From an uncultured Candidatus Saccharibacteria bacterium (lineage in GTDB: Bacteria > Patescibacteriota > Minisyncoccia > Minisyncoccales > RBG-13-42-11), in contig CAYYRI010000001.1 in NCBI GenBank assembly GCA_964474185.1, positions 1 through 28,789 on the forward strand: 28,789 nucleotides of DNA, read 5' to 3'. Under the pieces are notes generated by a model. The model was not told where the DNA came from and did not search any database. It was given only the letters and a program-made list of their open reading frames with translations. The position numbers and the translations under genes are program-made. Positions 5,900-24,677 of the stretch are shown here, piece by piece. Positions within the stretch are counted from its first letter, which is position 1. Each line of letters begins with the position of its first letter.

Positions 5900-6385
5900 C
5901 TATTGGATCGGACATTTCCCCGTGAATTCCCACCAATTTCCCAGACCCGTCCACTCTTGAATGCCCATGAAACCAAGGAGGGTGTTCAGAAGAATCCAAG
6001 CTATAAAAATAATCACTATGCCGATAATCGCCGCCGTAATCACTGATTTTGCCCGGTTCAAACTTTGGGGATTAATGCCGGCGGTTAAAAGATATAATCC
6101 GCCGATGATCAGCATTAGACCGCCGATTACGGGAGTGAGACAGGTCAGAATGAAATTAATGATATTGGTGATAAGGACAAAAATATGGCAGAATTGGCAA
6201 GCTGGCTGTTCCTGTCCTCCGCAGGGGACAATCGGTCCGCCGCAGTCCGCCAGAACCTGATTAGCCGGAAATAAAAAAAATCCGATTAGAATTCCTGACA
6301 ATATTAAATTTGGAAATTGGAATCTGGAAGCGAAGAGCGTTTGCTTTTCTTTATTTCGTTGCGACTCGATAATTGAAAATTTCAT
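5900..6385 (-). CDS. VirB2/TrbC-like (T4SS-pilin-like) small membrane protein of the type common in CPR genomes
   Basis: Signal/TM segment, then Cys motif CGGPIVPCGG...ACQFCHIFVLITNIINF, then two hydrophobic helices (PVIGGLMLIIGGLYLLTAG...AAIIGIVIIFIAWILLN). Start taken at MKFSII (6385); the upstream ATG at 6400 lies in a hairpin. Confidence 0.6.
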   Translation of the reverse strand: MKFSIIESQRNKEKQTLFASRFQFPNLILSGILIGFFLFPANQVLADCGGPIVPCGGQEQPACQFCHIFVLITNIINFILTCLTPVIGGLMLIIGGLYLLTAGINPQSLNRAKSVITAAIIGIVIIFIAWILLNTLLGFMGIQEWTGLGNWWEFTGKCPIQ

Positions 6386-6681: not shown

Positions 6682-8163
6682 ATGCTTATTCCCAAGGAGG
6701 TAAAATTTTTAATTGGAGAATTGAAAAAGAAGGGCTTTGAAGCGTATGTCGTCGGCGGTTGCGTCAGGGATTTTTTGAGAGGAGTTTCTCCAAAAGACTG
6801 GGATGTAGCCACCTCGGCCCGACCCGAGGAAATCCAAAAAATTTTTCCTAAGAGTTTTTACGAAAACAGATTTTTGACCGTAACCGTGCAGACGGGAAGC
6901 AAGAGCCCCGAATCAAAAGAAATTGAAATAACAACTTACAGGTCGGAAGCAAGATATACCGACAAGCGCCATCCTGACGAAATAAAATTCGCCGAAACCC
7001 TGGAAGAAGATTTGGGAAGAAGGGATTTCACGATAAATGCCATGGCCATCGACTTGGCTAAGCCAAGTTTCAAAACAAGTTTCAAAATCATCGATCCTTT
7101 TAACGGTCAACAGGATCTGAAGAATAAAATGATTCGGGCTGTTGGCAATGCCCAAGACCGGTTCGCCGAGGACGCTTTGAGGATGATGAGAGCGGTCAGG
7201 TTTGCCGCAACTTTGGACTCATCCGTCAGCTGGCGGATAGAAGAAAAAACGCAGGAAGCGATCAAAAATAATTCTTTCTTATTGAAGGCGATTTCCCAGG
7301 AAAGAGTCAGAGACGAATTGATGAAAATTATTATGACAGAGAGAGCGATGGAGGGTATAGAACTTTTAAGGCAGCTTAACTTGCTAAAATATATTATTCC
7401 GGAATTGGAGGAAGGTTACGGCACCAGCCAGAATAAGCATCATATATATGAATGCTACGAGCATTATTTAAGGTCCTTTGATTACGCAGTAAAACATAAT
7501 TTTAATAAGTATGTCAGACTGGCCGCTTTGTTCCATGACATCGGCAAGCCCCGGGCAAAACGGGGAGAAGGCAAGGACGCGACCTTTTACGGCCACGAGA
7601 TAATCGGAGCCAGAATGACAGCCCAAATTCTGGGCAGATTAAAATTCCCCAAAAAAGAAATTGAAAAAATAGTGAGATTGGTCAGATACCATCTTTTTTA
7701 CTATAATGTCGGAGAAGTTTCGGAGAGTTCGGTGAGGAGATTGGTTCTTAAGGTGGGTCCCGAAGACATGGAAGAATTGTTGCAGCTGAGAATGTCAGAC
7801 AGAGTGGGCTCGGGAGTTCCCAAAGCCGAACCTTACAAATTAAGGCATTTGAAATACGTGATTGAAAAAGTCGCCCAGGATCCGATTTCGGCAAAAATGC
7901 TCAAGACTTCGGGCGATACGATAATGAAAATTTTGAAAATCAAACCGGGGCCCAGAATAGGGCAAATTCTGGACGTTTTATTGGGTCTGGTTTTGCAAGA
8001 TCCGAAGAAAAACAAAAAAGAATTTCTGGAAAAGGAAATTAGAAGATTGGGAAAATTATCCGATAAAGAATTGAGGGCTTTGACCCAGAAGGCCCGGAAA
8101 GAGCGGGAAGAAATAACAATGAAAAGGGACGAAATGACGAAAAAGAAATACTGGGTGACGTAG
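6682..8163 (+). CDS. cca: CCA-adding tRNA nucleotidyltransferase (class II, with HD domain)
   Basis: 493 aa. N-terminal GGCVRDFLRGVSPKDWDVATSARPEEI and RDFTINAMA polymerase-beta motifs; HD motif LFHDIGKP. Confidence 0.9.
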   Translation: MLIPKEVKFLIGELKKKGFEAYVVGGCVRDFLRGVSPKDWDVATSARPEEIQKIFPKSFYENRFLTVTVQTGSKSPESKEIEITTYRSEARYTDKRHPDEIKFAETLEEDLGRRDFTINAMAIDLAKPSFKTSFKIIDPFNGQQDLKNKMIRAVGNAQDRFAEDALRMMRAVRFAATLDSSVSWRIEEKTQEAIKNNSFLLKAISQERVRDELMKIIMTERAMEGIELLRQLNLLKYIIPELEEGYGTSQNKHHIYECYEHYLRSFDYAVKHNFNKYVRLAALFHDIGKPRAKRGEGKDATFYGHEIIGARMTAQILGRLKFPKKEIEKIVRLVRYHLFYYNVGEVSESSVRRLVLKVGPEDMEELLQLRMSDRVGSGVPKAEPYKLRHLKYVIEKVAQDPISAKMLKTSGDTIMKILKIKPGPRIGQILDVLLGLVLQDPKKNKKEFLEKEIRRLGKLSDKELRALTQKARKEREEITMKRDEMTKKKYWVT

Positions 8164-8376: not shown

Positions 8377-8447
8377 CGGGGCATAGTATACCGGTAGTAC
8401 GCACGCTTCGGGTGCGTGAAGATTGGGTTCAATTCCCAATGCCCCGA
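8377..8447 (+). tRNA. tRNA-Pro (anticodon CGG)
   Basis: 71 nt. Acceptor CGGGGCA/TGCCCCG (the C1:G72 pair typical of bacterial tRNA-Pro), anticodon stem CACGC/GCGTG, loop TT-CGG-GT, T arm TTGGG-TTCAATT-CCCAA, discriminator A. CCA is not encoded. Confidence 0.9.
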
Positions 8448-8450
8448 CAT

Positions 8451-8524
8451 GGGCCTGTAGTAAAACGGCATTACGCGGCATTCGCATTGCCGAGGTCCGG
8501 GTTCAATTCCCGGCAGGTCCACCA
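8451..8524 (+). tRNA. tRNA-Ala (anticodon CGC), CCA encoded
   Basis: Acceptor GGGCCTG/CAGGTCC with the G3:U70 alanine identity pair, loop TT-CGC-AT, T arm CCGGG-TTCAATT-CCCGG, ACCA 3' end. Confidence 0.92.
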
Positions 8525-11286
8525 TGAATTCAATGCCTTTTCTCTGGATAATTTTTAGTTATTTTTTAGGGTCTATTCCCTTCGGTTATTTAATCGGCCG
8601 TTTATCGGGAAAAAATGTTTTAGAAGTTGGCTGGAGAAAAACTTCGGGCAGCAATGTTTTTAAAAACGTAGGAAAATGGCAGGGAGTTTTGACTGCAATT
8701 TTAGATGTTTCCAAAGGATATGCGGCAGTTTACGGAGCCAGGACGCTGGGCCTATCTTCGGAAGTTCAGGTTCTTTCCGGGGTGGCGGCGGTTACGGGCC
8801 ATAATTGGTCTCTGTTTTTGAAATTTGCCGGAGGGCGGGGCATCGGCACCTTTGCCGGCGCCTTTTTGGCTTTGTCTCCCCAAATTCTTCTCTTTTCCAT
8901 CATCCCCCTTATTATTTTAGCCATTGTTTGGAATGCCGCAATCGGGACCATTTTATTTTTATTCACTGCAATTTTCCTTTCCCGGTATCTTAATCAATTT
9001 GGGACGGCGGGAGTTTTTACAACTTTGTCCTTAGTCCCCATTTTCATTAAAAGATTAAGCCCGATCGAAGAAATCAAAGAATCTCAGAGAAAAGCGCAAT
9101 TATTAAGAAATCGTCTTATTTTTGACGATGACGTGGCTTTGTTGGAGTTGAGAATCAAAAGAATTTTCCAAAAAACAAAAGGCAGCCACGGTTTATTTAT
9201 GAAAATAATGAAACCCGTTACCGCTCCTTTCTGGCTGCCCCCGAAAGTCGGCTGGCAGGTGGCGAAATTCGGGGTAAAGATGGCTAAAAAACCGATAGGC
9301 AAATTTATTTTGAAACCTCAGGAAAAAGTCGTTAACGAAATTAAAACAGAGGACTTTAAAAAAATGATGGTCGCCGCCGCCAAAAAAATCGTTGTGCATC
9401 AGGAGGAAATCAACAAAATAAACGTTTTCCCCGTGGCGGACAAAGATACTGGTTATAATTTGGCGGCTACTTTATTGGGGATTGAGGGAACAATCTCCCA
9501 AAGAAATTACCAAACCCTTAGAGAGTTGACCAAAGACATCAAAGAGGCGGCGATGATTAACGCCAGGGGAAACGCCGGAATGATTTACACGGGTTATCTG
9601 ATTGAAGTTCTGGACAGAGTGAAACATTTGGAAACGATAGATGCCTTTCATTTGGCTCTGGCGATGCGAAGAGGGATAAAAGCGGCAAGATCCTCCATTG
9701 CGGAACCCGTGGAAGGAACGATTTTGGACACGGTAAAAGCCGCCGGAGAAAGAGCTTATGAAGTCGCCAAATTTAAAGATCCCGCCCTCGGCAAACAGGA
9801 AAAAAACATAATTAAAATGCTGGAGGAAGCTCAGAAGAGCTCGGATATCGCCCTTAAAGAAACGAAAGAGAAATTACAAGTTTTGAAGGAAAACGACGTG
9901 GTTGATGCCGGGGCCCTGGGTTTCGTCAAAATCTTAGAGGCCTGGGTTGAAAGCCTGAAGGGAGTTGAAGTAGCCAGCCCCATTTTTTCGCCGGAAACAG
10001 AAGAGAAGCTAAAATACAGAGTCGAAGAGGATAAATCCTCTTCTTCACCCTTCGCTGCGGCTCGGGTATACGAAGTGGTGCTGAGTTTCAGAAAAAATAA
10101 AGAAATCAGCGCAGAAGATTTAAAAAATGAATTATCTTCTTTGGGCGACAGTTTGGAGATTCTGGAACTGGAAGACAAAATCAAACTTCATATTCATACG
10201 AACGAGCCGGAGCTTGTTCGAGAAAAATTCAGGCACTTGCCGGAGTTTGAATCAAGGGTCGAAGAGCTTTTATGCTCTTCTTCACCCTTCGCTGCGGCTC
10301 GGGCGATTGAAGACATGGAACATCCGGGCTTGGCAGGCGATGAATCTAAAGATTCATCTTCACCTACCCGAGCGCAGCGAAGGGTGGAAAAGAACAGAAT
10401 GTTCTTTGATTCGCCTCGCCGCGCGCTCGGCTTGGTGGTTGATGAAGTTGCCGATTTACCGAAAGAATTTTTAGAAAAATATAATATTGAAGAAGTGCCT
10501 TTTACGACCAGGTTTCCGGACGGAGAATTCATCACTTCAAAAGAAGATATTTATCAGAAAATGAAAGAAGCTTTGGCAACCGGGCGCCATTTGCCCACTA
10601 CTGCCGCCCCTTCGTTCAAAAATTTCCTTTCGGTTTATCAAAACGCTCTGAAAAATTTTGAAAAAATTTTGGTGATCACCATTTCTTCGAAGCTTTCCGG
10701 CGCTTACAGTTCGGCCAGAATCGCCCGTTCCGTTTTCAAAAAACCGGAAAAGCTTGATATCTTCGTTTTCGACTGTTTTACCGCCGAAGTCGGCGAAGGT
10801 CTGGCCGCGATAAAAACGCAGGAATTGATTTCCCAGGGCAAAACGACCGAAGAGATTGTGGAAAAACTGAAAGAATTTTGTCCAAAGATTACTTTATTGG
10901 CCTGCATAGACGATTTTAAATACGTAGTCAGGGGAGGAAGAGTCAGATTGCCAAAAATATTCATTGGACCTACCTCGTTCATCCAGAAATTGGGAATCAG
11001 GTTTTTGGTGGGTTTGAAAAACGGAAAGGTCAAATTCTTCGGGGCGAGTTTGGGGAAAGACAAGGCGAGAATCCTGGCCGAAGAGATTGATCTGCAAAGA
11101 CGAGGCGGAGCTATCCAGGTGGCCATAGCCCACGCCGATAATTTGAAAGAAGCCCAGAAACTTAAAACCGAACTGGAAAAAAGGCCCCAAATAAAAGTTT
11201 TATACATTTCTTCGGTATCGCCGGTGGTGGCAACCCATACGGGGCCCGGGGCGCTTCTCGCGGCCTTTCATCCGATTGACAAATAA
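8524..11286 (+). CDS. plsY: Single ORF fusing a PlsY-like acyl-phosphate:G3P acyltransferase, a Dak2/DhaL (FakA-like) kinase module and a DegV (FakB-like) fatty-acid-binding domain
   Basis: PlsY part, residues 1 to about 195: LGSIPFGYLIG, DVSKGY, GHNWSLFLKFAGGRGIGT, multiple TM helices. Dak2 part, about 270-480: INVFPVADKDTGYNLAAT. Central part: LGDSLEILELEDKIKLHIHTNEP. DegV part, about 637-920: VVDEVADLPKEFLEKYNIEEVPF...TTAAPSFKNFL...ITISSKLSGAYSSA. No stop codon anywhere in 920 codons. Confidence 0.85.
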   Translation: MNSMPFLWIIFSYFLGSIPFGYLIGRLSGKNVLEVGWRKTSGSNVFKNVGKWQGVLTAILDVSKGYAAVYGARTLGLSSEVQVLSGVAAVTGHNWSLFLKFAGGRGIGTFAGAFLALSPQILLFSIIPLIILAIVWNAAIGTILFLFTAIFLSRYLNQFGTAGVFTTLSLVPIFIKRLSPIEEIKESQRKAQLLRNRLIFDDDVALLELRIKRIFQKTKGSHGLFMKIMKPVTAPFWLPPKVGWQVAKFGVKMAKKPIGKFILKPQEKVVNEIKTEDFKKMMVAAAKKIVVHQEEINKINVFPVADKDTGYNLAATLLGIEGTISQRNYQTLRELTKDIKEAAMINARGNAGMIYTGYLIEVLDRVKHLETIDAFHLALAMRRGIKAARSSIAEPVEGTILDTVKAAGERAYEVAKFKDPALGKQEKNIIKMLEEAQKSSDIALKETKEKLQVLKENDVVDAGALGFVKILEAWVESLKGVEVASPIFSPETEEKLKYRVEEDKSSSSPFAAARVYEVVLSFRKNKEISAEDLKNELSSLGDSLEILELEDKIKLHIHTNEPELVREKFRHLPEFESRVEELLCSSSPFAAARAIEDMEHPGLAGDESKDSSSPTRAQRRVEKNRMFFDSPRRALGLVVDEVADLPKEFLEKYNIEEVPFTTRFPDGEFITSKEDIYQKMKEALATGRHLPTTAAPSFKNFLSVYQNALKNFEKILVITISSKLSGAYSSARIARSVFKKPEKLDIFVFDCFTAEVGEGLAAIKTQELISQGKTTEEIVEKLKEFCPKITLLACIDDFKYVVRGGRVRLPKIFIGPTSFIQKLGIRFLVGLKNGKVKFFGASLGKDKARILAEEIDLQRRGGAIQVAIAHADNLKEAQKLKTELEKRPQIKVLYISSVSPVVATHTGPGALLAAFHPIDK
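10021..10075 (+). repeat. GC-rich hairpin repeat, in phase inside the fusion ORF (encodes VEEDKSSSSPFAAARVYE)
   Basis: GTCGAAGAGGATAAATCCTCTTCTTCACCCTTCGCTGCGGCTCGGGT contains the hairpin GAAGAGGA-TAAA-TCCTCTTC. About 46 of 52 nt are identical to the intergenic copy at 20401-20452. Confidence 0.8.
10258..10413 (+). repeat. Cluster of three hairpin-repeat modules (one direct, one hairpin-only, one inverted) forming the linker before the DegV domain
   Basis: 10258-10303: GTCGAAGAGCTTTTATGCTCTTCTTCACCCTTCGCTGCGGCTCGGG. 10339-10358: GATGAATCTAAAGATTCATC. 10366-10413: ACCCGAGCGCAGCGAAGGGTGGAAAAGAACAGAATGTTCTTTGATTCG, the reverse complement of the family consensus with a different but still paired hairpin. 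Confidence 0.75.
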
Positions 11287-11481: not shown

Positions 11482-13689
11482 ATGGACATAAAAAATTTTG
11501 CATCGGCCATCGCCCAAATTGCCGAAGAAAAAGGCATTTCAGCGGAAAAGGTTTTGGAAACCATTGAGATGGCCATCGCCGCCGCTTACAAAAAGGATTA
11601 CGGCAAAAAAGGCCAAATAATCAAAGCCAAGCTTGATTCGGAATCTGGCGATGTTAAGTTTTGGCAGGTGAAATTGGCGGTTGCAAAATCAATGATTTAT
11701 TCCGAAGAAGAATTGAAAAAGCTCGCGGAGAAAGCCGCAATTTCTCAAAGGCCAGTTTCCGTCGAGAATGAATTCTCGGAAGAAGAAATCAAAGGCGAAA
11801 AGAAAGTTCGTTTTAACCCCGAGAAGCATATTATGCTCGAGGACGCAAAAAAGATAAAACCGAAAATAAAAGCGGGCGAAGAGTTTGAAACGCCTTTGGA
11901 ACCTCAGAAAGATTACGGAAGAATTGCCGCCCAGACGGCAAAACAAGTAATTCTCCAGCGAATCAGGGAAGCGGAAAAAGAAAGCATATTCTCTGAATAT
12001 AAATCCAAGGAAGGAGAAATAATTTCCGGTATCGTCCAGAGGATCGAGGGCAGAAACGTCTTTTTGGACATAGGCAAGACATTGGGCGTTTTGCCGAGAG
12101 AAGAGCAGGTTATGGGAGAATTTTACCGCCCCGGCCAGCGGCTTAAAGCATACGTTTTGAAAGTTGATGAAACCCCTAAGGGCCCAATAATTTTTTTATC
12201 AAGAGCTTATCCAAAATTGATTTCAAAGCTTTTTGAATTAGAGGTGCCTGAAATTTCTTCCGGCCAGGTCCAGATAAAATCAATTGCCAGAGAGGCTGGT
12301 TCGAGGTCGAAAATTGCGGTGGCGACCGAAGCGGATGGAGTAGATCCGATAGGAAGCTGTTTTCCGGGCAGAACTTTAATTCTAATGGAGGATTTCAGTT
12401 ATAAACCCATTGTTCAACTATCAAAAGGAGAAGTAGTTTTCACTCATTTAGGGAACCGAGAAATAATCTCAAAAACTTTTAAAAGGATATGGAATGGAAC
12501 TACTTTAAAATTTGAAGTTTTTGGAATTCACCAGAATTTAGAAGTTACTAAAGAACATCCGTTGCTTTTTACCCTTGGCTACGACCAAAAAAAAGAATTT
12601 AAAGAAGCTTCGAGAATTAAAAAAGGCTATTTAGCAATCCCTACTTTAGAAAATGTAGTATTTGATAAAACTATTTATCATTTCGAAAAAGAAAAAGATT
12701 TTTTATGGGTTTTGGGAATATATTTAGCTGAGGGTTCTTTGGATCGCGCGGAGGTTAATTTCACCCTCTCTAAACAAGAAAAAGATAAAGCATTAAAGAT
12801 AAAAGATATAATGGAAAAATATGGGGGCAAGGTTTATATTAGAGAATCTAACTGTCGCCCTTCAGTTTTAGATATTAAATTATTTGGAGAATATTGGAGA
12901 AAAATATTCAAAGAATTGGGCGGAGAGTATTGCGATAGAAAAAAAATAAATTCAAGATTAATGTTTTTAAGCCCAAAATTACAACTCGAAATTTTCAAAG
13001 GGTGGAAAGATGGAGATGGTTATTTTGATAAGAAAAGAAACCGAACTATAATAGTTACAACCTCAGAGAATCTTCTATGGCAGATGTATCATATTTTACT
13101 TAGAAATAAAATTAGAGCCAATATGCAAAAACGAAAAGACCGAGAGGGTCGAAAAGATGCTTATCAATTGGAAATCGCCAATAATAAGACGAGAGATTAT
13201 CGGGGATTTTTTCGAGGTGATTATTATTTTTCACGCATCAGAAAAATAGAAAGAGGACCTTGTTCTTCGGGCCGCCAGGTTTACAACCTTGAGGTAGGGG
13301 ATGATAATTCCTATATAGCTTACTCAGTGGCAGCACATAATTGTGTCGGCCAAAAAGGAACGAGAGTAATGGCCGTGATAAACGAACTGGGCGGAGAAAA
13401 AATCGATATTATCGAATATTCGCCAGAACCCGAAAGGTATATTGCCAACGCCTTATCCCCCGCCAAAGTTTTAGAAGTAAAAATTCTGCCGAAAAATAAA
13501 GCCCAGGCCGTTGTTCCCGAAGACCAATTGTCTTTGGCCATCGGCAAAGACGGCCAAAACGTCAGATTAGCGGCGAAATTAACGGGCTGGAAAATAGACG
13601 TTAAGGGTCCGGAAGAGGAAAAAAAACAAGAAGTCGAAGAAACAAAAAAAATAAAAAAACCAAGAAAAAAACCCAAAAATAAAATATGA
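11482..13689 (+). CDS. nusA: Transcription termination/antitermination factor NusA, interrupted by an intein
   Basis: N-terminal domain, S1 ([21 protein letters not shown]) and KH1/KH2 domains. The extein junction DPIGS|C...HN|[24 protein letters not shown] restores the conserved DP(V/I)G(A/S)CVG motif. Lys-rich C-terminal tail. Confidence 0.95.
12358..13341 (+). mobile_element. Intein (328 aa) with LAGLIDADG homing-endonuclease domain inside nusA
   Basis: Cys1 ([13 protein letters not shown]), block B TKEHP, LAGLIDADG motifs LGIYLAEGS and [11 protein letters not shown], block [23 protein letters not shown] followed by +1 Cys. In frame (residues 293-620). Visibly more AT/Lys-rich than the flanking nusA sequence. 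Confidence 0.9.
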
Positions 13690-15668
13690 TTTTTATTCCA
13701 ATCATCGCTTCAATAGTTTCTTTAATTTTTGCTTATTTTTTAATTCAGGAAGTGAACAAATCTTCGGCGGGAACGGGGAAAATGATTGAGATAGCCCAGG
13801 CCATAAAAGAGGGAGCCGTGGCTTTTCTAAAAAGACAATACAGAACCATCGGCATCGTGGCCGTAATTTTATTTTTTATTCTTTTTGCAACCTTGGGGAT
13901 AAAATCCGCCTTAGGTTTTTTAATCGGAGCCCTGGCTTCCGCCCTTTCCGGTTTTATCGGAATGATGGTTTCGACTAAAGCCAATGTCAGGGTGGCGGAA
14001 ATTGCGAAACTTGGGTTAAAACGGGCTCTTAATTTGTCTTTTAAGGGAGGTTCCGTAACCGGATTTTTAGTGGTAGGGTTGGGACTCTTTTCGGTTTCCG
14101 TGTTTTATCTTTTAACCCAGGATTTGAAAGCTTTAATTGCTTTGGGTTTCGGAGGCAGTTTAATTTCAGTTTTCGCGAGACTGGGCGGGGGAATTTACAC
14201 TAAGGCCGCCGATGTCGGGGCCGACTTGGTCGGCAAAGTAGAAAAAGGAATTCCCGAAGACGACCCGAGGAATCCGGCGGTCATCGCCGACCAAGTCGGA
14301 GACAACGTCGGTGATTGCGCCGGCATGGCAGCCGATCTTTTCGAGACTTACGTAGTAACGATAATAGCGGCAATGGTTTTGGGAGGACTTATTTTTCCCA
14401 ATTTGCCCGAAGCCATATTTTTGCCCTTAATTTTAGGTTCGATCGGCATTTTAGCTTCGATTATTTCAACTTTTTTCGTCAGGCTTCCGAAAAATCAATC
14501 GGTTATTTCCGCTCTTTACAAAGGGCTTTTGGGAGCCGGAATTTTATCGGCCATCGGGTTTTTGCCCGTGATTTTGCAAGTGAGCAAGGATTTCAAAATG
14601 TCGCCCCTGAGTCTTTATTTACCGGCGCTAATCGGTCTTTTGATTGCCGCCGGCATGTTTTTAATTACGGAATTTTTTACTTCCAAAAAATACTCTCCGG
14701 TTCAATCCATTGCGAAGGCTTCCCAGTCGGGCCACGGCACCAACATAATTGCCGGTTTGGCCGTTGGGATGAAATCGACAATCCTGCCGGTTATTTTAAT
14801 TTCAGCGGGAATTTTAATCAGCTTTTCTAGCGGAGGATTGTACGGTTTGGCGCTTTCGGCTTTGGCGATGCTTTCTTTAAGCGGCCTGATCATCGCGTTG
14901 GATTCTTACGGTCCTATAACCGACAATGCCGCCGGTATTTCTGAGATGGCGGGCCTTCCGGAAGAAACAAGGGCCATAACCGATGCTTTGGATTCCATCG
15001 GCAATACGACTAAGGCGGTGACCAAAGGCTACGCGATAGCTTCGGCGGGATTGGCCGCCCTGGTTTTATTTTCCGCTTTTAATCAGGAGTTGTCGGATTA
15101 CGGCGCAAAAGTAAAATTTATGCTGGACGATCCGAGGCTTCTAGTCGGGCTTTTTGCCGGCGGAGTCGTCGCTTATTATTTCGTGGCCCTGGCCATGGAA
15201 TCGGTAGGGAAAGCCGCGGGAAAGGTGGTTGAAGAAGTGAGGAGACAATTTAAGGAAATTCCGGGGCTTATGGCTGGTTTGGCCAAACCGGATTATTCCA
15301 AATGCGTTGATATTGTAACGAAATCCGCTTTAAGGGAAATGATAGTCCCCGCCTTATTGCCGGTTGTTTTTCCGATTTTAATCGGCAAAATCTTGGGGCC
15401 GGAAGCTTTGGGCGGTCTTTTAATAGGTTCAATCATCGTGGGAATATTCTTAGCCATACAAATGACTTCCGGGGGAGCCGCTTGGGATAATGCAAAAAAA
15501 TATATTGAAGAAGGAAACTTGGGAGGCAAGGGTTCTTTCGCCCATCAGTCAGCCGTTACCGGCGACACAGTGGGAGACCCTTATAAAGATACGGCAGGGC
15601 CCGCCATAAACCCCATGATAAAAATACTCAACATCGTAGCTCTTCTGATAGTTTCTTTCCTGGTGTAA
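13686..15668 (+). CDS. hppA: Membrane-bound proton-translocating pyrophosphatase
   Basis: 660 aa, polytopic. Signatures [30 protein letters not shown] and [18 protein letters not shown]. The GNTTKA motif (Lys) is the variant associated with K+-independent enzymes. Its start overlaps the nusA stop (ATGA). Confidence 0.95.
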
Positions 15669-18466: not shown

Positions 18467-19996
18467 ATGAATCAAATTATCCTACTAATAATAGGCATTA
18501 TTGTATTGGCGGCGGGATCATTTTTGGGTTACTACGCCAGGCAATCGATTGCCCAAAAACAAGCCGGAACCTTAGAGGCCAAACTTCAGAAAAAAGTCTT
18601 AAAAGCGAAACAGGATTCTGACGTAATCCTGGCCGAAGCCAAACAAAAAGCTCAAGAATTTTTAGAATCAACTAAGAGGGCGGTAGAAAACAGGCGCGAA
18701 GAGGTTTACAAAACCGAGCAGCTTTTGCTGAGGAGAGAAAACATTTTAGACCAGAAACTTTCCAATTTTGAAAGAACTCAGAGAGAATTCGAGGCCAAAG
18801 TGGAAAGATTAAGGGCGATAAAGGAAAGTCTGGAAGGTTTAAGGCAGGAAGCCATAACAAATTTAGAAAAGATTGCCAAACTTCCGCGGGAAGAAGCAAA
18901 AAAAGAACTTCTTCTGAACCTGGAGAAAGAATATCAACAGGAGATTTTAGAAAAACTCAGGGGACTGGAAAAAGAAGGGTGGGAAAAATACGAAAACAGG
19001 GCCAAAGAGTTGCTGGCAACGGCTATCCAAAAATTCGGTTTGAGCCAGGCCCAGGAAATCACAACCACCTCTTTGAATTTGCCCTCGGAAGACATTAAAG
19101 GCAAGATAATCGGAAAAGAGGGAAGAAACATCAGAACCTTGGAAAAATTAACCGGAGTGGAAATAATCGTAGACGAGACTCCGGAATCGGTAGTCATTTC
19201 CGGGTTTGATCCCGTCCGCCGGCAAATTGCGAAAGTCGCTCTTGAAAAATTAATCCAGGACGGAAGAATACAGCCCGCCAGAATCGAGGAACAAGTTCAA
19301 ATAGCCGAAAAAGAAATAGTGAAACAAATCAAGGATGCGGGAGAGACGGCAGTTTACGACGTGGGGCTTATCGGCCTTGAACCCAAATTGGTTCAGTTGT
19401 TGGGAAGATTGAAATTCAGAACGAGTTTCGGCCAAAACGTTTTGCTCCATTCGATTGAAGTGGCTCATCTGGCTTCAGCTTTGGCCTCGGAAATCGGGGC
19501 GGATCCTTTAATCTGTAAAAAAGCAGGCCTTCTCCATGATATCGGCAAAGCGGTTGATCACCAGGTTGAGGGTTCTCATGTCGATATTGGAATCAAGATT
19601 TTGGAGAAATTCGGAGTGGAAAAAGAAGTGATATCCGCCATGAAATCGCATCATGAGGAATATCCGGCCGAAACCATTGAGGCGACCTTGGTGCAGACGG
19701 CGGATCAAATTTCGGGAGCCAGGCCCGGAGCGAGAAAAGACACTCTGGAAAATTATCTGAAAAGGCTGGGAGAATTGGAGAGCATCGCTTTGCGATTCCC
19801 GGGAGTGGAAAAGGCCTGGGCTTTGCAGGCAGGCAGGGAAATAAGGGTTTTTGTAAAACCCGAGACGATTGACGACTTATCGGCCAGAAATTTAGCCAAA
19901 TCCATTGCTAACAGTATTCAGGAAGAATTGAAATACCCGGGAGAAATCAAGGTTAACGTGATCAGGGAATTAAGGGTGACGGAATACGCTAAGTAA
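18467..19996 (+). CDS. rny: Ribonuclease Y
   Basis: 509 aa. N-terminal TM helix, long coiled coil, KH (KGKIIGKEGRNIRTLEKLTGVEIIVDE) and HD domain (LLHDIGKAVDH), and a C-terminus typical of RNase Y. Confidence 0.95.
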   Translation: MNQIILLIIGIIVLAAGSFLGYYARQSIAQKQAGTLEAKLQKKVLKAKQDSDVILAEAKQKAQEFLESTKRAVENRREEVYKTEQLLLRRENILDQKLSNFERTQREFEAKVERLRAIKESLEGLRQEAITNLEKIAKLPREEAKKELLLNLEKEYQQEILEKLRGLEKEGWEKYENRAKELLATAIQKFGLSQAQEITTTSLNLPSEDIKGKIIGKEGRNIRTLEKLTGVEIIVDETPESVVISGFDPVRRQIAKVALEKLIQDGRIQPARIEEQVQIAEKEIVKQIKDAGETAVYDVGLIGLEPKLVQLLGRLKFRTSFGQNVLLHSIEVAHLASALASEIGADPLICKKAGLLHDIGKAVDHQVEGSHVDIGIKILEKFGVEKEVISAMKSHHEEYPAETIEATLVQTADQISGARPGARKDTLENYLKRLGELESIALRFPGVEKAWALQAGREIRVFVKPETIDDLSARNLAKSIANSIQEELKYPGEIKVNVIRELRVTEYAK

Positions 19997-20026
19997 AAAT
20001 TTCTAATTACTAATGTTTAATCGAAA

Positions 20027-20052
20027 CCCCGCCAGAATATATTCTGGCGGGG
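20027..20052. terminator. Bidirectional rho-independent terminator between convergent rny and the tRNA operon
   Basis: Perfect palindrome CCCCGCCAGAATATATTCTGGCGGGG, flanked by T-rich tracts on both strands. Confidence 0.8.
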
Positions 20053-20059
20053 TTTGCGT

Positions 20060-20133
20060 TGGAGCGGGATATGGGAATCGAACCCATCTTTTCACCTTGG
20101 AAGGGTGACGTTGAGCCGCTCAACTAATCCCGC
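20060..20133 (-). tRNA. tRNA-Gly (anticodon UCC), CCA encoded
   Basis: Acceptor GCGGGAT/ATCCCGC, D arm GTTG-AGCGGCT-CAAC, anticodon stem TCACC/GGTGA with loop CT-TCC-AA, T arm ATGGG-TTCGATT-CCCAT, discriminator U followed by CCA. Confidence 0.92.
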
Positions 20134-20134
20134 A

Positions 20135-20354
20135 TCGGGGCACTGGGATTCGAACCCAGACTAAATCCTCCCACCCCAGTACTAAAAATTAACTTTCGGG
20201 GTATCCAGATTTGAACTGGAACTAAATCCTCCCAAAGGACTCGTGCTACCATTACACCATACCCCGTTAATTTTAGTACGGGGCAAGAAGGACTCGCCTG
20301 CCCCGTAGTGAGCTTCGCTCTACTACCGGGGTGCTACCGTTGCACTATGCCCCG
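20135..20354 (-). other. Interrupted (split, intron-containing or decayed) tRNA-Pro-like gene enclosing tRNA-Pro(UGG)
   Basis: The 5' part (20354-20331) is CGGGGCA-TA-GTGC-AACGGTA-GCAC. The 3' part (20172-20135) is GGGA-GGATT-TAGT-CTGGG-TTCGAAT-CCCAG-TGCCCCG-A. The acceptor strands are perfectly complementary. See the first finding for details. Confidence 0.55.
20196..20266 (-). tRNA. tRNA-Pro (anticodon UGG)
   Basis: 71 nt. Acceptor CGGGGTA/TACCCCG, D arm GTGT-AATGGTA-GCAC, anticodon stem AGTCC/GGATT with loop TT-TGG-GA, T arm TCCAG-TTCAAAT-CTGGA, discriminator A. CCA is not encoded. Confidence 0.9.
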
Positions 20355-20363
20355 TTCGCGCTT

Positions 20364-20392
20364 ATTTTAATAAAAATTACACTTTTGGTCAA
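20364..20392 (-). promoter_or_regulatory. Candidate promoter of the minus-strand tRNA operon
   Basis: Minus strand reads TTGACC (20392-20387), 17-nt spacer, TAAAAT (20369-20364). The 5' end of the outer tRNA-Pro-like gene (20354) lies 10 nt downstream. Confidence 0.5.
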
Positions 20393-20400
20393 TATTTTAA

Positions 20401-20452
20401 GCGAAGAGGATAAATCCTCTTCTTTACCTTTCGTTGCGGCTCGGGTGTATGA
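20401..20452 (+). repeat. Intergenic copy of the GTCGAAGAG-hairpin repeat family
   Basis: GCGAAGAGGATAAATCCTCTTCTTTACCTTTCGTTGCGGCTCGGGTGTATGA is near-identical to the coding copy at 10021-10075. Confidence 0.75.
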
Positions 20453-20507
20453 TATACTAAATCAATGAATTCCATTCATTTCATTTCTCACTAATGTTCA
20501 AAAATCA

Positions 20508-23767: not shown

Positions 23768-23768
23768 T

Positions 23769-23800
23769 AAATCCGAAGCACGAAATCCGAAATCCGAAAC
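23769..23800 (+). repeat. Heptamer tandem array (AAATCCG units) at the left edge of the pilB-pilC insert
   Basis: AAATCCG AAGCACG AAATCCG AAATCCG AAAC. Confidence 0.6.
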
Positions 23801-23808
23801 AAATTCAA

Positions 23809-24174
23809 ATGGATAAAATTAAAAATTCAAAACAATACGATTTAGAAGAACGCACATTCGAATTTGCAAAGAGAGTAAGAATTTTTGTTAAAGAACTTTC
23901 CAAGACAATAGGAAATATTGAAGATGGGAAACAACTTATCCGATCTTCCGGTTCAATTGGCGCTAATTATATTGAAGCAAATGAATCTTTAAGCAAGAAA
24001 GATTTCGTTATACGAATTAAAATCTGTCGCAAAGAAGCAAAAGAGAGTAAATACTGGTTGCTGCTTATAGATGTTTATAACAATCAAAAATTGGAAAAAG
24101 AACGCCAAGAGCTTACAAAAGAAGCCACTGAGTTAATGATGATTTTCAGTTCCATTATGAGAAAATCTATGTGA
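23809..24174 (+). CDS. Four-helix-bundle protein (23S rRNA intervening-sequence protein / Avd-like family)
   Basis: 121 aa. YDLEERTFEFAKRVRIFVKEL...GKQLIRSSGSIGANYIEANESLSKKDF...ICRKEAKESKYWLLL is characteristic of this family. Confidence 0.85.
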   Translation: MDKIKNSKQYDLEERTFEFAKRVRIFVKELSKTIGNIEDGKQLIRSSGSIGANYIEANESLSKKDFVIRIKICRKEAKESKYWLLLIDVYNNQKLEKERQELTKEATELMMIFSSIMRKSM

Positions 24175-24183
24175 AAAAAGAAT

Positions 24184-24606
24184 ATGAAATACAAAAATCC
24201 AAAAGTTATAGAAAATAAGGTCACTAAAAATATTGAGGATAAGGCAAAAGATTATATTGTTAAATATTTAAAAGAACATGACGGGATAAAGGCCGACGAT
24301 ATTAAGCGGAAATTAAAAAAGGGAGCTGATATTAAAATTTTCAAAAATGGAAAATGCATAAAATGGATTGAAGCAAAGGGTTGCAATAAAAAAGAAACAA
24401 ATATCAGAATTACACCTCAATCGTTATTCACAATTGCAGAAGAAGGCGGGCTTAAAAATTACTTTATCTATTTTGTTTATGAAATGAATTCTAAAAAGCC
24501 GAAGCTTGTCATTTTTGATTATGAAACATTCAAGAAACATAAAATTATAGAAATTAAGTATATAATTCAACCATCTAAAATTAAACATAAGGTAATAGGT
24601 TTATGA
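24184..24606 (+). CDS. Small PD-(D/E)xK nuclease-fold-like protein (DUF3883-like pattern)
   Basis: 140 aa. GADIKIF-x9-IEAKG gives a D...E-x-K arrangement, followed by IRITPQSLFTIAEE and YFIYFVYEM, as in DUF3883-type domains. The call is based on motifs only. Confidence 0.55.
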   Translation: MKYKNPKVIENKVTKNIEDKAKDYIVKYLKEHDGIKADDIKRKLKKGADIKIFKNGKCIKWIEAKGCNKKETNIRITPQSLFTIAEEGGLKNYFIYFVYEMNSKKPKLVIFDYETFKKHKIIEIKYIIQPSKIKHKVIGL

Positions 24607-24668
24607 TTTTGAATTTTGAATTTGGAATTTAGATATTGTTTCGAATTTCGATATTCGAATTTCGAATT
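24605..24668 (+). repeat. Heptamer tandem array (ATTTTGA / TCGAATT units) at the right edge of the pilB-pilC insert
   Basis: ATTTTGA ATTTTGA ATTTGGA ATTTAGA TATTGTT TCGAATT TCGATAT TCGAATT TCGAATT. The TCGAATT part is an imperfect inverted copy of the left array. Confidence 0.65.
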
Positions 24669-24677
24669 TAAATAAGT

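Follow-up and report, generated by a model that had tools for sequence, protein, structure and literature searches.

A complete tRNA-Pro(UGG) gene nested within an interrupted tRNA-Pro(UGG) gene of a Patescibacteria genome: a probable tRNA replacement cassette

The anticodon loop of tRNA genes is a classical target of integrases and a classical sublocation of integration. Integrative elements that target tRNA genes (phages and islands) insert inside the gene, bring tRNA sequence that saves its function, leave a displaced fragment behind and reuse the locus; those known carry the 3' part of the tRNA only, displace a single 3' fragment that persists as a direct repeat, are kilobases long and encode an integrase. 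The intervening sequences of rRNA genes, many of which have been reported in CPR bacteria, are extended helices in the loops of a structural RNA gene and are removed by RNase III without re-ligation. In the engineered 'tRNA scaffold', the anticodon stem of a tRNA receives a recombinant RNA, and the acceptor and T arms are left intact. Split tRNAs of the Nanoarchaeum type have their halves at separate loci, are joined in trans via complementary leaders and are the only copy of that tRNA. The smallest group I intron known to us has about 200 nt. Group I introns comprise about ten helices with a catalytic core of about 100 nt (PMC4033280). The spliced tRNA introns of archaea carry a bulge-helix-bulge, which consists of two 3-nt bulges separated by 4 bp; the splicing endonuclease cuts there, and ligation of the pieces yields the sole copy of that tRNA. 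The presence of similar inserts in many archaeal intron-bearing and split tRNA genes suggests mobility (PMC4033280).

Here we describe a tRNA-in-tRNA unit of 220 nt, 20354-20135 on the minus strand of the window (the whole stretch of 28,789 nt that was analysed; the parts of the unit and tRNA-Gly are on its minus strand unless noted). As in the original prediction, a complete tRNA is nested in an interrupted one and is reached through a helix that continues the outer anticodon stem; every element was found where it had been placed. The inner tRNA-Pro(UGG) and its complementary arms of 21 and 22 nt lie exactly between U33 and U34 of an outer tRNA-Pro(UGG), the remains of which we call the shell. 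A promoter-like site, TTGACC-17-TAAAAT (20392-20364; 10 of 12 matches in a consensus scan), ends 9 nt before the outer 5' end and not 10 nt as first given. The shell opens with tRNA positions 1-25, CGGGGCATAGTGCAACGGTAGCAC (20331-20354), made up of the acceptor 5' strand CGGGGCA, TA and the D arm GTGC-AACGGTA-GCAC, and this part pairs with 20142-20136 in the free-energy fold. Between its D stem and position 26 the shell already holds a second insert, the 35-nt hairpin H1 (CCCGGTAGTAGAGCGAAGCTCACTACGGGG with the tail CAGGC; 20296-20330). Positions 26-33, GAGTCCTT (G-AGTCC-TT; 20288-20295), end at U33, are identical to positions 26-33 of the inner tRNA and pair with GGATT at 20168-20164. The 5' arm of the cassette, CTTGCCCCGTACTAAAATTAA (20267-20287), begins with the family-wide junction motif CT(T/C)(G/A)C and is complementary, with two 1-nt bulges, to the 3' arm, AAGTTAATTTTTAGTACTGGGG (20174-20195). 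Between the arms lies the inner tRNA-Pro(UGG) (20196-20266; 71 nt, no encoded CCA), which was called by ARAGORN and matched Rfam RF00005 with 61 bits. The cassette (20287-20174) measures 114 bp, 71 nt of which are tRNA and 43 nt the rest, with no ORF inside. Shell positions 34-73 follow, TGGGAGGATTTAGTCTGGGTTCGAATCCCAGTGCCCCGA (20135-20173): TGGGA, GGATT, TAGT, the T arm CTGGG-TTCGAAT-CCCAG, the acceptor strand TGCCCCG and the discriminator A. The two acceptor strands of the shell are, as had been noticed, perfectly complementary and the same as those of tRNA-Pro(CGG) at 8377-8447. All stems of the shell are perfect, UGGGA is kept at its 3' junction and there is no point-mutational damage. One spacer base separates the shell from tRNA-Gly(UCC) (20060-20133; ARAGORN and Rfam), and between the latter and the convergent RNase Y gene lies a G+C-rich hairpin, AAACCCCGCCAGAATATATTCTGGCGGGGTTT (20024-20055, no strand assigned), which is kept in the related locus L109 and, from its sequence and weak Rfam terminator-type matches, is likely to be a bidirectional terminator. 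No shell fragments were found around the other tRNAs of the window. A CCA-adding enzyme is encoded at 6682-8163.

The outer gene is recognizable by statistical as well as structural means. An nhmmer profile of the tRNA-Pro genes of relatives matched the outer 3' half with E = 6e-8 (profile positions 33-71) and the 5' part with E = 0.04 (profile positions 1-24). When both inserts were deleted in silico, the resulting 71-nt sequence was called tRNA-Pro(UGG) by ARAGORN. Folding of 20135-20354 by free energy alone gave the nested double cloverleaf at -102.8 kcal/mol (z = -6.9, with 0 of 200 shuffles as good), and the nested fold of locus L092 reached z = -7.2. The nested copies share identical stretches of 14-22 nt that might confuse an assembler, which speaks for an assembly or binning artefact; the nesting could also be a one-off local rearrangement in decay. 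However, the same nested sequence was found in at least seven other metagenome assemblies or contigs. L001-L004, L110 and L134, which come from different samples and assemblers, share it (one base off in L001), and the close relative L109, with genes 90-94% identical to those of the window, has the same nesting, so that mis-assembly is excluded. Since about 25 more distinct loci in other species have the same junction and architecture, we regard an artefact or a one-off event as next to impossible.

The position of the unit points to the identity of the outer gene. About 45 related genomes have one tRNA-Pro(UGG) at a distance of 0-12 nt upstream from tRNA-Gly(UCC), the Pro-Gly pair being downstream of RNase Y, and in L086 the order is promoter, tRNA-Pro, 1 nt and the same tRNA-Gly. 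The outer 5' and 3' ends of the window's unit sit exactly where the ends of these single tRNA-Pro genes lie. Because most relatives have their single tRNA-Pro here and with the same promoter in front of it, it is the outer gene that is resident and has become a shell. The promoter site is conserved before the single tRNA-Pro of L086 and before the units of L085, L109 and L127, the last two of them nested, which makes it plausible that shell, inner tRNA-Pro and tRNA-Gly would form one transcript, as was originally proposed. The further argument that retention of the promoter speaks against decay of the outer gene fails, because the inner tRNA requires that promoter.

The likeness to split or intron-containing archaeal tRNAs, drawn in the original prediction together with a re-joining of the halves, did not find support. 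The intron-bearing, split and tri-split tRNAs of Nanoarchaeum, Caldivirga and Thermoproteales, like the locus described here, have several non-canonical interruptions and complementary sequences that unite the pieces. Unlike them, this locus belongs to a bacterium, its insert holds a working tRNA of the same identity, and most homologous shells cannot yield the anticodon. At the boundaries 20288|20287 and 20174|20173 the free-energy fold contains no bulge-helix-bulge but a nearly continuous helix, interrupted only by 1-nt bulges at 20288, 20178 and 20188; an archaeal-type intron was rejected on this ground. Neither the EndA nor the RtcB family was among the 20 larger ORFs of the 28.8-kb window that were scanned against Pfam. 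In contrast to split tRNAs, the halves belong to a single 220-nt unit with one promoter, and an intact tRNA of the same anticodon lies between them. Group I introns of bacterial tRNAs share with the cassette the anticodon loop, the precision of insertion, the absence of duplication, a 5' exon ending in U and an insert ending in G, and their homing into empty alleles with co-conversion is the pattern that we infer for the cassette, although nothing suggests that the cassette is spliced. An Rfam search at E <= 10 over 19950-20500 returned the two tRNAs and weak terminator-like noise and no group I intron or other ribozyme; with just 43 nt in the insert besides the tRNA, a group I intron, a ribozyme or another known RNA was rejected as well.

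Splicing, the reading preferred in the original prediction, would make the outer gene a working, twice-interrupted tRNA-Pro(UGG) from which both inserts are removed before the exons are ligated, whether by an archaeal-type endonuclease and ligase or by some bacterial route, and the cell would then have two tRNA-Pro species. The joined exons would read ...GAGUCCUU|UGGGAGGAUU..., minus the 35-nt hairpin. Exact removal of both inserts, and of nothing less than both, does restore a perfect 71-nt tRNA-Pro(UGG); the four shell stems are intact, divergence from L109 is low, and the 3' exon starts with UGGGA, which is kept at the junction of six shells (the window, L092, the middle layer of L100, L109, L130 and L131). 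Nevertheless, we consider such splicing very improbable. Each boundary falls within a continuous helix or at its edge, most of the 114-nt insert is a tRNA, and two inserts at different positions (three or four in L092) would each have to be excised precisely. TGAAGGA, TAAGGGA, TAAAGGA or TGAAGAA stands at the 3' junction of 10 of the 16 outer genes that can be compared, so that the UGG anticodon cannot be restored, and these variants share no common anticodon. The shell was lost without replacement in L132, a strain of the same organism, and its D arm is destroyed in L109. Moreover, the outer gene is not needed by the cell, as the inner gene has the same anticodon.

The nesting in the window is one case of a recurrent arrangement. 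A scan of metagenomes for the junction pattern returned 43 loci, about 25 of them distinct and nested, and three (L103, L116 and L119) chance matches; nesting or its remnants were also found in five of 80 syntenic GTDB loci (L028, L037, L046, L011/L092 and L083). All nested loci share the junction CTT|CT(T/C)(G/A)C, always at the same position of tRNA-Pro(UGG). Arms homologous to the window's 5' arm occur at about 25 other loci, and the inverted motif CTTGCCCCG...CGGGGTG is conserved at the cassette ends in all families. The window conforms to this pattern: complementary arms enclose an intact tRNA, the insertion follows U33 of a tRNA with the same identity, and the 3' junction is rich in purines. 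Some nested loci have two or three layers (L097, L099, L100, L101, L104, L106, L117, L123 and L127), and in each of the 17 such loci scanned ARAGORN found exactly one intact tRNA-Pro(UGG), the innermost. The genes seen to hold arm-flanked cassettes were solely those of tRNA-Pro and, with arms of a similar kind, of tRNA-Gly: L127, L097 and L117 contain nested units of tRNA-Gly(UCC), of which those in L127 have arms (CCCCGCCC...GGGCGGGG) in the style of the tRNA-Pro cassettes. Hairpins like H1 recur too, with the same tail and in an equivalent position within the outer shells of L108, L127, L129 and L100, as more divergent versions in L130 and L101, as a remnant in L117, and between positions 39 and 40 instead in L092 and L131. 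By BLAST over about 0.6 Mb of window and loci, H1 was confined to interrupted tRNA-Pro genes, and a dispersed repeat was ruled out. The sober alternative first offered, a tRNA gene destroyed by insertions, came closer to the truth than splicing, but it misses this recurrent, site-specific family of tRNA-carrying cassettes. Full-text searches of the literature returned no description of nested, interrupted or intron-bearing tRNA genes in CPR/Patescibacteria, and these loci apparently constitute a widespread family of tRNA-carrying insertions in ultra-small (CPR) bacteria that is undescribed in the literature searched.

Comparison with known mobile DNA sets the cassette apart. Where known integrative elements carry a part of the tRNA and genes of their own, the cassette carries the whole tRNA gene, displaces both halves of its target symmetrically, is small and geneless, and is nested rather than tandem; it ends in inverted instead of direct repeats, and its junctions contain no duplicated overlap. 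Miniature inverted-repeat elements and insertion sequences would likewise have inverted arms, but neither a target-site duplication nor, in the roughly 0.6 Mb searched with H1, dispersed copies were found. Scans of viral contigs for the cassette or its junction gave nothing beyond chance matches in unrelated coding sequence, and a phage origin was rejected.

Cassettes and shells have separate histories. The T arm of the inner tRNA, TCCAG/TTCAAAT/CTGGA, is of the type found in L109, L130, L092, L094 and L129, and we refer to the cassette family with the window's cargo type as E1. E1 cassettes are 87-97% identical while their shells are only 59-82% identical, and the window shares arms and cargo type with L109, L130, L092 and L094 at 87-97% identity. 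Between the window and L130 the 5' arms are identical and the 3' arms nearly so, with flanking genes just 67-75% identical. The 3' shell half of L126 is chimeric, being of the L113 shell type up to GTTCAA and from there on of the type to which its own 5' half belongs; such chimeric shells (L126 and L113), with crossovers within the tRNA halves, indicate homologous exchange. Neither an enzyme nor a donor-recipient pair nor near-identical genomes with an empty and a filled locus came to light, so that how the cassette spreads is something that we infer.

We consider it probable that the unit arose when a mobile tRNA replacement cassette entered the resident tRNA-Pro(UGG) gene, and that the shell is co-transcribed with the cassette and not re-joined. 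The outer gene would be the tRNA-Pro(UGG) that this Patescibacteria (Nealsonbacteria-like) genome had originally, cut between U33 and U34 by a cassette that brought its own complete tRNA-Pro(UGG), differing in sequence type, which would now be the functional gene of the locus. The cassette, which encodes no enzyme, probably spreads by recombination via the highly conserved tRNA halves on both sides, in a manner akin to the homing of introns, in which adjoining exon sequence is co-converted. Its cargo offers an intact target in turn, so that later rounds would stack cassettes into the two or three layers seen in some genomes, each round turning the previously working gene into a shell. One promoter would yield a transcript of shell, cargo and tRNA-Gly. 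Since the arms prolong the shell anticodon stem into a helix of about 30 bp, this precursor should fold as a cloverleaf within a cloverleaf, from which the inner tRNA and tRNA-Gly would be matured by RNase P, RNase Z and the CCA-adding enzyme, with both pieces of the shell as unjoined by-products.

The replacement cassette might be moved by something other than general homologous recombination. A dedicated enzyme acting in trans, such as a tyrosine or serine recombinase, a HUH-type single-strand transposase or a homing endonuclease, could recognise the anticodon stem-loop of tRNA-Pro(UGG) together with the CCCCG/CGGGG arm ends. The invariant insertion point after U33, in a loop of the kind that integrases favour, and the inverted motif at the ends of all families would suit such an enzyme, as would the arms, which when joined end to end form a stem-loop resembling an anticodon arm, and the nested tRNA-Gly arms of L127 in the same style. 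Homing-dependent mobile elements do exist in this genome (its NusA carries an intein with a LAGLIDADG domain), and a 223-aa helix-turn-helix protein is encoded repeatedly in the Pro-Gly spacer of relatives. However, that protein also occurs at loci without nesting, and its predicted fold (pLDDT 81) found no match at E < 0.001 among solved nucleases and recombinases. The cassette has no linked enzyme gene, the junctions have neither a duplicated overlap nor a target-site duplication, the viral contigs scanned gave no match to cassette or junction, and the crossovers inside tRNA halves speak for homologous exchange. For these reasons, a trans-acting enzyme seems doubtful to us.

It is also conceivable, and we hold it at slightly under an even chance, that the cassettes are a new class of enzyme-less selfish element, which breaks an essential single-copy tRNA gene at the anticodon loop and supplies its own copy. 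The host could then not lose the cassette without exact repair, and, because the cargo re-creates the target, cassettes would pile up as Russian dolls. Given the nested tRNA-Gly(UCC) units, the same principle would operate on other tRNAs. On this account, complementarity of the arms would be preserved at the level of DNA, and the locus in the window would be young and fully preserved.

Shells are dispensable and undergo decay, and a series from intact shells to remnants was observed. Most shells are without the UGG anticodon, 8 of the 16 that have both halves carry 1-4 stem mismatches, and some miss a whole half: the 3' half is absent from L037, L102 and L132, and crumbs alone persist in L046 and L085. 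In L132, the flanks of which are 99.5% identical to those of the window, the DNA between the copies of the repeated TGGGAGGATTTAGT has been deleted, which joins the 5' part of the inner gene to the 3' part of the outer one and leaves a single chimeric tRNA 1 nt from tRNA-Gly. Damage is greater in the outer than in the inner layers of L100 and L123. The cargo of L093 and L028 is identical (71/71) while their shells differ at about 16 of 75 positions (hand count), and the L028 shell has 4 stem mismatches. In L109 the shell D arm and the hairpin have been replaced by unrelated sequence.

Some features of the shells nevertheless appear conserved. The acceptor 5' strand, the anticodon-stem strand and the entire 3' half survive in L109 despite its destroyed D arm, and in the shell parts outside the D arm and both arms the window differs from L109 at 1 of 106 positions (0 of 22 in the 3' arm), against 7 of 63 (about 11%) in neighbouring non-coding sequence and 5 of 41 at the start of the kinase gene. 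More divergence would be expected of a relic under no selection at all, unless the block had been exchanged of late. Some constraint, or a very recent exchange, is therefore real, and on this point the original prediction remains favoured. The acceptor stem is 7/7 paired in 13 of 16 shells (two with one G-U), with its strands more than 200 nt apart. The arms, which differ greatly between cassette families, always match their partner, and so something maintains their pairing.

These observations could mean that the shell has been co-opted as an RNA scaffold that decodes nothing, its acceptor stem, T arm and long helix being selected to hold the nested fold. It would stop near-identical shell sequences from mispairing with the cargo and might offer sites for RNase P, RNase Z or RNase III. 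Besides the low divergence from L109 and the paired acceptor stems, this would agree with the nested fold being the free-energy minimum in the window and L092, and with a recurrent change in the former anticodon loop, where GGGAG, which forms two G-U pairs with CUUCUU, repeatedly becomes AAGGAG or AAGAAG with Watson-Crick pairs, by which the helix is lengthened. In topology the locus equals the engineered tRNA scaffold, with cargo RNA at the end of an extended anticodon stem; the laboratory chimera, however, stays whole, whereas here the arrangement is natural and RNase P and RNase Z should release the cargo tRNA. Several findings are at odds with a selected scaffold. L037, L102 and L132 lack the 3' half and still function, as do L046 and L085, which have hardly any shell. 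The block that is so similar in L109 is flanked on both sides by replaced sequence and could stem from recent exchange. Unrelated hairpins are inserted in the shell T loops and D arms of L092, L097, L100, L108, L123, L127 and L128. Lastly, the comparison of relatives for compensatory changes in the enclosing helix, proposed as a check, gave no support to RNA-level selection: an excess of G-U over A-C had been expected, but the arm pairs comprised 302 Watson-Crick pairs, 2 G-U and 7 A-C mismatches, an asymmetry that is not significant. Pairs were counted on the arms, since a count on the whole-region fold is inflated by inherited pairs and by inner acceptor stems. RNA-type compensatory evolution of the arms is thus not supported, and well-paired arms fit DNA-level templating (for instance, template-switch correction of quasi-palindromes) as well as or better than RNA compensation. 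Taken together, we think a scaffold role unlikely.

Hairpins inserted into the D region and the T loops of shells resemble the intervening sequences of rRNA genes, which occur in the same group of organisms. The cassette differs from the latter in that fragmented rRNA stays functional while a tRNA cut in its anticodon loop would not, and in that it additionally carries a replacement gene.

If the replacement reading is true, tRNA genes of CPR bacteria turn over from inside, a small cassette replacing the working gene and leaving the old gene as a shell, and nested loci would be a natural record of successive gene replacements with one layer per event. It would further suggest that mobile DNA can spread between diverged genomes with tRNA halves of 30-40 nt as the sole shared homology, and the locus would be a natural counterpart of the engineered tRNA scaffold. 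Standard tRNA finders report the innermost gene only, so that shells are invisible in annotations and can be mistaken for introns or split genes. The groundwater and sediment communities from which such genomes come have been widely sampled.

The nested unit of the window occupies 220 nt on the minus strand (20354-20135), and its order can be read directly from the sequence. Positions 1-25 of an interrupted outer tRNA-Pro(UGG), the shell (CGGGGCA-TA-GTGC-AACGGTA-GCAC), are followed by a 35-nt hairpin insert (20330-20296), shell positions 26-33 (G-AGTCC-TT), a 21-nt 5' arm (CTTGCCCCGTACTAAAATTAA), a complete 71-nt inner tRNA-Pro(UGG), the cargo (20266-20196), a 22-nt 3' arm (AAGTTAATTTTTAGTACTGGGG) and shell positions 34-73 (TGGGA-GGATT-TAGT-CTGGG-TTCGAAT-CCCAG-TGCCCCG-A); tRNA-Gly(UCC) begins 1 base beyond the shell 3' end. 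The two arms and the cargo make up a 114-bp cassette (20287-20174) inserted between U33 and U34. ARAGORN and Rfam reported the inner tRNA-Pro and tRNA-Gly at this locus and nothing of the shell, whose pieces were recovered with a profile built from the tRNA-Pro genes of relatives (3' half, E = 6e-8; 5' part, E = 0.04). Folding the 220 nt by free energy alone gives one cloverleaf enclosed in another (-102.8 kcal/mol, z = -6.9), and in-silico deletion of both inserts leaves a sequence that ARAGORN calls tRNA-Pro(UGG). The inner gene is a different allele, as shown by its T arm (TCCAG/CTGGA versus CTGGG/CCCAG in the outer gene), and differs at about 14 of 71 positions by our count. On the same strand, 9 nt separate the outer 5' end from an upstream promoter-like TTGACC-17-TAAAAT. 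The anatomy described in the original prediction is therefore accurate, and its single transcript, which would start from this one site, is plausible.

An artefact is ruled out by independent assemblies. The RNase Y protein adjoining the locus is also encoded on four other contigs (ENA, JGI samples), the tRNA region of which is >99% identical to the window, nesting included; two further contigs (L110, L134) carry an identical unit, and the close relative L109 is nested as well. Two of the compared contigs show single-base variants that could be rare alleles or errors of sequencing: in L001, C replaces A at ~4736 (window 20201) in the acceptor 3' strand of the inner gene and breaks one pair, and L004 (coverage 2.7x) has two changes in the tRNA-Gly anticodon stem (window ~20096-20098).

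The window has a gene complement characteristic of Candidate Phyla Radiation (CPR) bacteria (type IV pilus genes, T4SS-type pilins, RNase Y, PNPase, a proton pyrophosphatase, a CCA-adding enzyme), and its RNase Y shares 64-81% identity with the enzymes of MAGs assigned to Nealsonbacteria and other Parcubacteria. In about 45 of these MAGs, one single tRNA-Pro(UGG) gene ends 0-12 nt before tRNA-Gly(UCC), and the pair is convergent with RNase Y. The plain form is exemplified by L086 (RNase Y 83% identical), with the same promoter, tRNA-Pro, 1 nt and the same tRNA-Gly. Because the start and end of the window's outer gene exactly match those of this single gene, the outer gene is the resident and the inner tRNA with its arms the newcomer. 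In another contig, L088 (1534-1802), the RNase Y protein is the same as in L086, tRNA-Pro is reduced to its last six bases before tRNA-Gly and the upstream gene differs (2-phosphosulfolactate phosphatase family); this is a rearrangement breakpoint inside tRNA-Pro. The 2.6-kb contig L084 (JAWOEA010000046.1), placed in the bin of an Undinarchaeales archaeon, encodes an RNase Y with 67% identity to that of the window; it probably belongs to Patescibacteria and was mis-binned.

From the anatomy and established tRNA processing, we infer the following working of the locus. One promoter would transcribe shell, cargo and tRNA-Gly together, and the arms would lengthen the shell anticodon stem to a ~30-bp helix capped by the cargo cloverleaf. 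The cargo and tRNA-Gly would be freed by RNase P and RNase Z and finished by the CCA-adding enzyme (encoded at 6682-8163); the shell pieces would stay paired and presumably then be degraded. The original prediction favoured instead an archaeal-style tRNA in a bacterium, the outer halves being re-joined after removal of the inserts. The bulge-helix-bulge motif is defined by 3-nt bulges separated by 4 bp (PMC4033280), and it is absent from the shell/insert boundaries of the fold, which has 1-nt bulges only (20288, 20178, 20188). The insert lies far below the size of a group I core and matches no Rfam family. Re-joining would also need exact removal of two inserts in the window, and of three or four in the syntenic genome L092, to yield an anticodon that the inner gene already supplies. 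For these reasons, a re-joined outer tRNA is highly improbable.

Nesting or its remnants recur in syntenic genomes (L028, L037, L046, L011/L092, L083), in all of which the junction ...CTT|CT(T/C)(G/A)C directly follows U33. A metagenome scan for that junction plus a tRNA-Pro start retrieved 43 loci, ~25 of them distinct nested loci; these counts are lower bounds, since a fixed junction motif and a tRNA-Pro D loop were required. Three of the 43 (L103, L116, L119) were chance matches. Two- or threefold nesting was seen in nine loci (L097, L099, L100, L101, L104, L106, L117, L123, L127), the order in L123 being 5' half, arm, 5' half, arm, intact tRNA, arm, 3' half, arm, 3' half. ARAGORN, run on 17 such loci, called a single intact tRNA-Pro(UGG) in each, always the innermost. 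Nesting extends beyond tRNA-Pro: tRNA-Gly(UCC) units are nested with same-style arms in L127 (~14400-14589, plus strand), L097 (~6040-6320, plus strand) and L117 (downstream of 4267). In L127, the whole anticodon arm of the outer tRNA-Gly (GCGGGGGTAATTCAACGGTAGAATAG ... ACGTCACGGGTTCGAATCCCGTCTCCCGCTCCA) is replaced by arms CCCCGCCCATTA/TAATGGGCGGGG around an intact tRNA-Gly, and L046 retains, downstream of tRNA-Gly, a 3' tRNA-Gly remnant whose T loop contains a hairpin.

The arms sort into families, three of which are described here: that of the window, E1 (arms CCCCG(T/C)AC(T/C)AAAAT(T/C)AA, cargo T arm TCCAG), a second with arms CCCGCCAAAATTTT and a third with arms CCCC(G/A)TTAGAAAT. E1 cassettes are 87-97% identical while the shells of their loci are only 59-82% identical; between the window and L130, a locus whose neighbouring genes are only 67-75% identical, the 5' arms are identical and the 3' arms nearly so. 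These comparisons point to the cassette as the unit that moves. Adjoining shell halves can travel along: the 3' shell half of L126 is of the type of another locus, L113, up to GTTCAA and then of the type matching L126's own 5' half, with a broken T stem, which looks like co-conversion during homologous exchange. We infer spread by recombination between alleles. As the cargo is an intact tRNA-Pro(UGG), an incoming nested allele could recombine with it and add a layer, and an incoming uninterrupted allele could strip one. That a dedicated enzyme acting in trans moves the cassette, instead of plain recombination, is a possibility to which we give a minor weight. The cassette encodes no enzyme, no near-identical filled and empty pair was found among the loci compared, and the 223-aa helix-turn-helix protein that relatives often encode in the tRNA-Pro/tRNA-Gly spacer lacks support as a candidate.

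Shells decay in several ways. Among 16 shells with both halves, stem mismatches number zero in eight and 1-4 in eight, and in 10/16 the 3' junction reads TGAAGGA, TGAAGAA, TAAGGGA or TAAAGGA, not TGGGA. In-silico removal of the cassette from these ten leaves no Pro anticodon, nor any anticodon common to them. Each of these purine runs pairs with the CUUCUU at the 5' junction, and the helix therefore continues across the former anticodon loop. The 3' half is absent or truncated in L037 and L102, mere crumbs of shell are left in L046 and L085, and outer layers are more damaged than inner ones in L100 and L123. The cargoes of L093 and L028 are identical (71/71) and their shells differ at ~16/75 positions (hand count), that of L028 having four stem mismatches. 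Further hairpins have been acquired in shell D regions and T loops; the one in the L127 T loop is of a type (GAAGAGATTTATCTCTTC) that is also intergenic, including upstream of the window's promoter. This small palindromic repeat, GAAGAG(G)ATTTATC(C)TCTTC, lies at 20403-20422 in the window and in intergenic DNA of L127, L093, L109 and L028, besides the copy in the L127 tRNA-Pro shell; copies are scattered through those genomes, and tandem copies often precede the tRNA promoter. In L132, a strain of the window's organism with flanks 99.5% identical, a deletion between repeated TGGGAGGATTTAGT joins the 5' part of the inner gene to the 3' part of the outer one, giving one chimeric tRNA 1 nt from tRNA-Gly. 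In L109 (genes 90-94% identical to the window's), the shell D arm and hairpin are swapped for unrelated sequence. By these two cases, the shell is dispensable.

It is conceivable that the shell serves as a scaffold, keeping the precursor in the nested fold and guarding the cargo against mispairing with the near-identical shell sequence. The window and L109 differ at 1/106 positions over both arms and the shell outside its D arm, compared with 7/63 in adjacent non-coding DNA and 5/41 at the kinase gene start, and the acceptor stem is 7/7 in 13/16 shells. This role is a live rival, though of low probability. Arm sequences diverge greatly between families, yet partners always match, with 302 Watson-Crick pairs, 2 G-U pairs and 7 A-C mismatches in 24 arm pairs. 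Compensatory evolution of RNA helices normally leaves many G-U pairs and few A-C mismatches, and template-switch correction of quasi-palindromes is a known mutational process. The counts seem to fit DNA-level maintenance, such as template-switch correction, better than RNA compensatory change; they also agree with strict selection for Watson-Crick pairing.

Among known systems, the nearest are integrative elements that target tRNA genes and restore the gene into which they insert. The cassette shares their logic of target-restoring insertion but carries a whole gene, has inverted arms, lacks an integrase and nests its copies. Group I intron homing is also close, with precise insertion and co-converted flanking exons, although the cassette has no ribozyme; the likeness to archaeal disrupted tRNAs is only superficial. 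The full-text literature searched, with incomplete coverage, contained no description of one tRNA gene nested in another, nor of an interrupted tRNA gene in a CPR bacterium. The cassette is an apparently undescribed variant of target-restoring insertion in a tRNA gene, with a substantial chance of deserving the status of a new class of selfish element. In place of an archaeal-style tRNA, the locus would represent a widespread, layered and apparently undescribed route of tRNA gene replacement.

Other elements lie at or near the locus. The conserved 223-aa protein is repeatedly encoded in the tRNA-Pro/tRNA-Gly spacer (minus strand at 4150-4821 in L005 and 4141-4812 in L047; also L035, L063, L069, L095), with a remnant in L083/L131, and looks like the product of a mobile gene using this locus. 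It combines an N-terminal helix-turn-helix with an alpha/beta domain without family or structural match, its family has ~1,200 members in Patescibacteria, and a guess that it is a LAGLIDADG protein was not supported. A small 125-aa ORF without Pfam match (L047, 4909-5286, minus strand; L133, downstream of a degenerate 3' shell half) adjoins tRNA-Pro in unrelated contigs, another sign of an insertion hot spot. Large hairpins of ~90 nt (AAAATCCCCCG ... CGGGGGATTTT) adjoin tRNA-Pro/Gly in L010 (~4300-4390, minus strand) and L085 (~3530-3630, minus strand) and form another palindromic element family, with ends CCCCCG/CGGGGG.

Elsewhere in the window, all on the plus strand, the 735-aa NusA gene (11482-13689) contains, between the S1 and KH domains, an intein bearing a LAGLIDADG homing-endonuclease domain, so homing-type elements live in this genome. 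A low-G+C insert of ~900 bp (23768-24677) separates the genes for the pilus ATPase (T2SSE) and platform (T2SSF) and encodes a member of the '23S rRNA intervening sequence protein' family (23809-24174) and a NOV_C-domain protein (24184-24606); it is recent, since the two pilus genes are adjacent in L109. Finally, a fused 920-aa ORF (8524-11286) joins a PlsY-type glycerol-3-phosphate acyltransferase, a Dak2/FakA-like domain and a DegV domain, and starts at the last base of tRNA-Ala (8451-8524).
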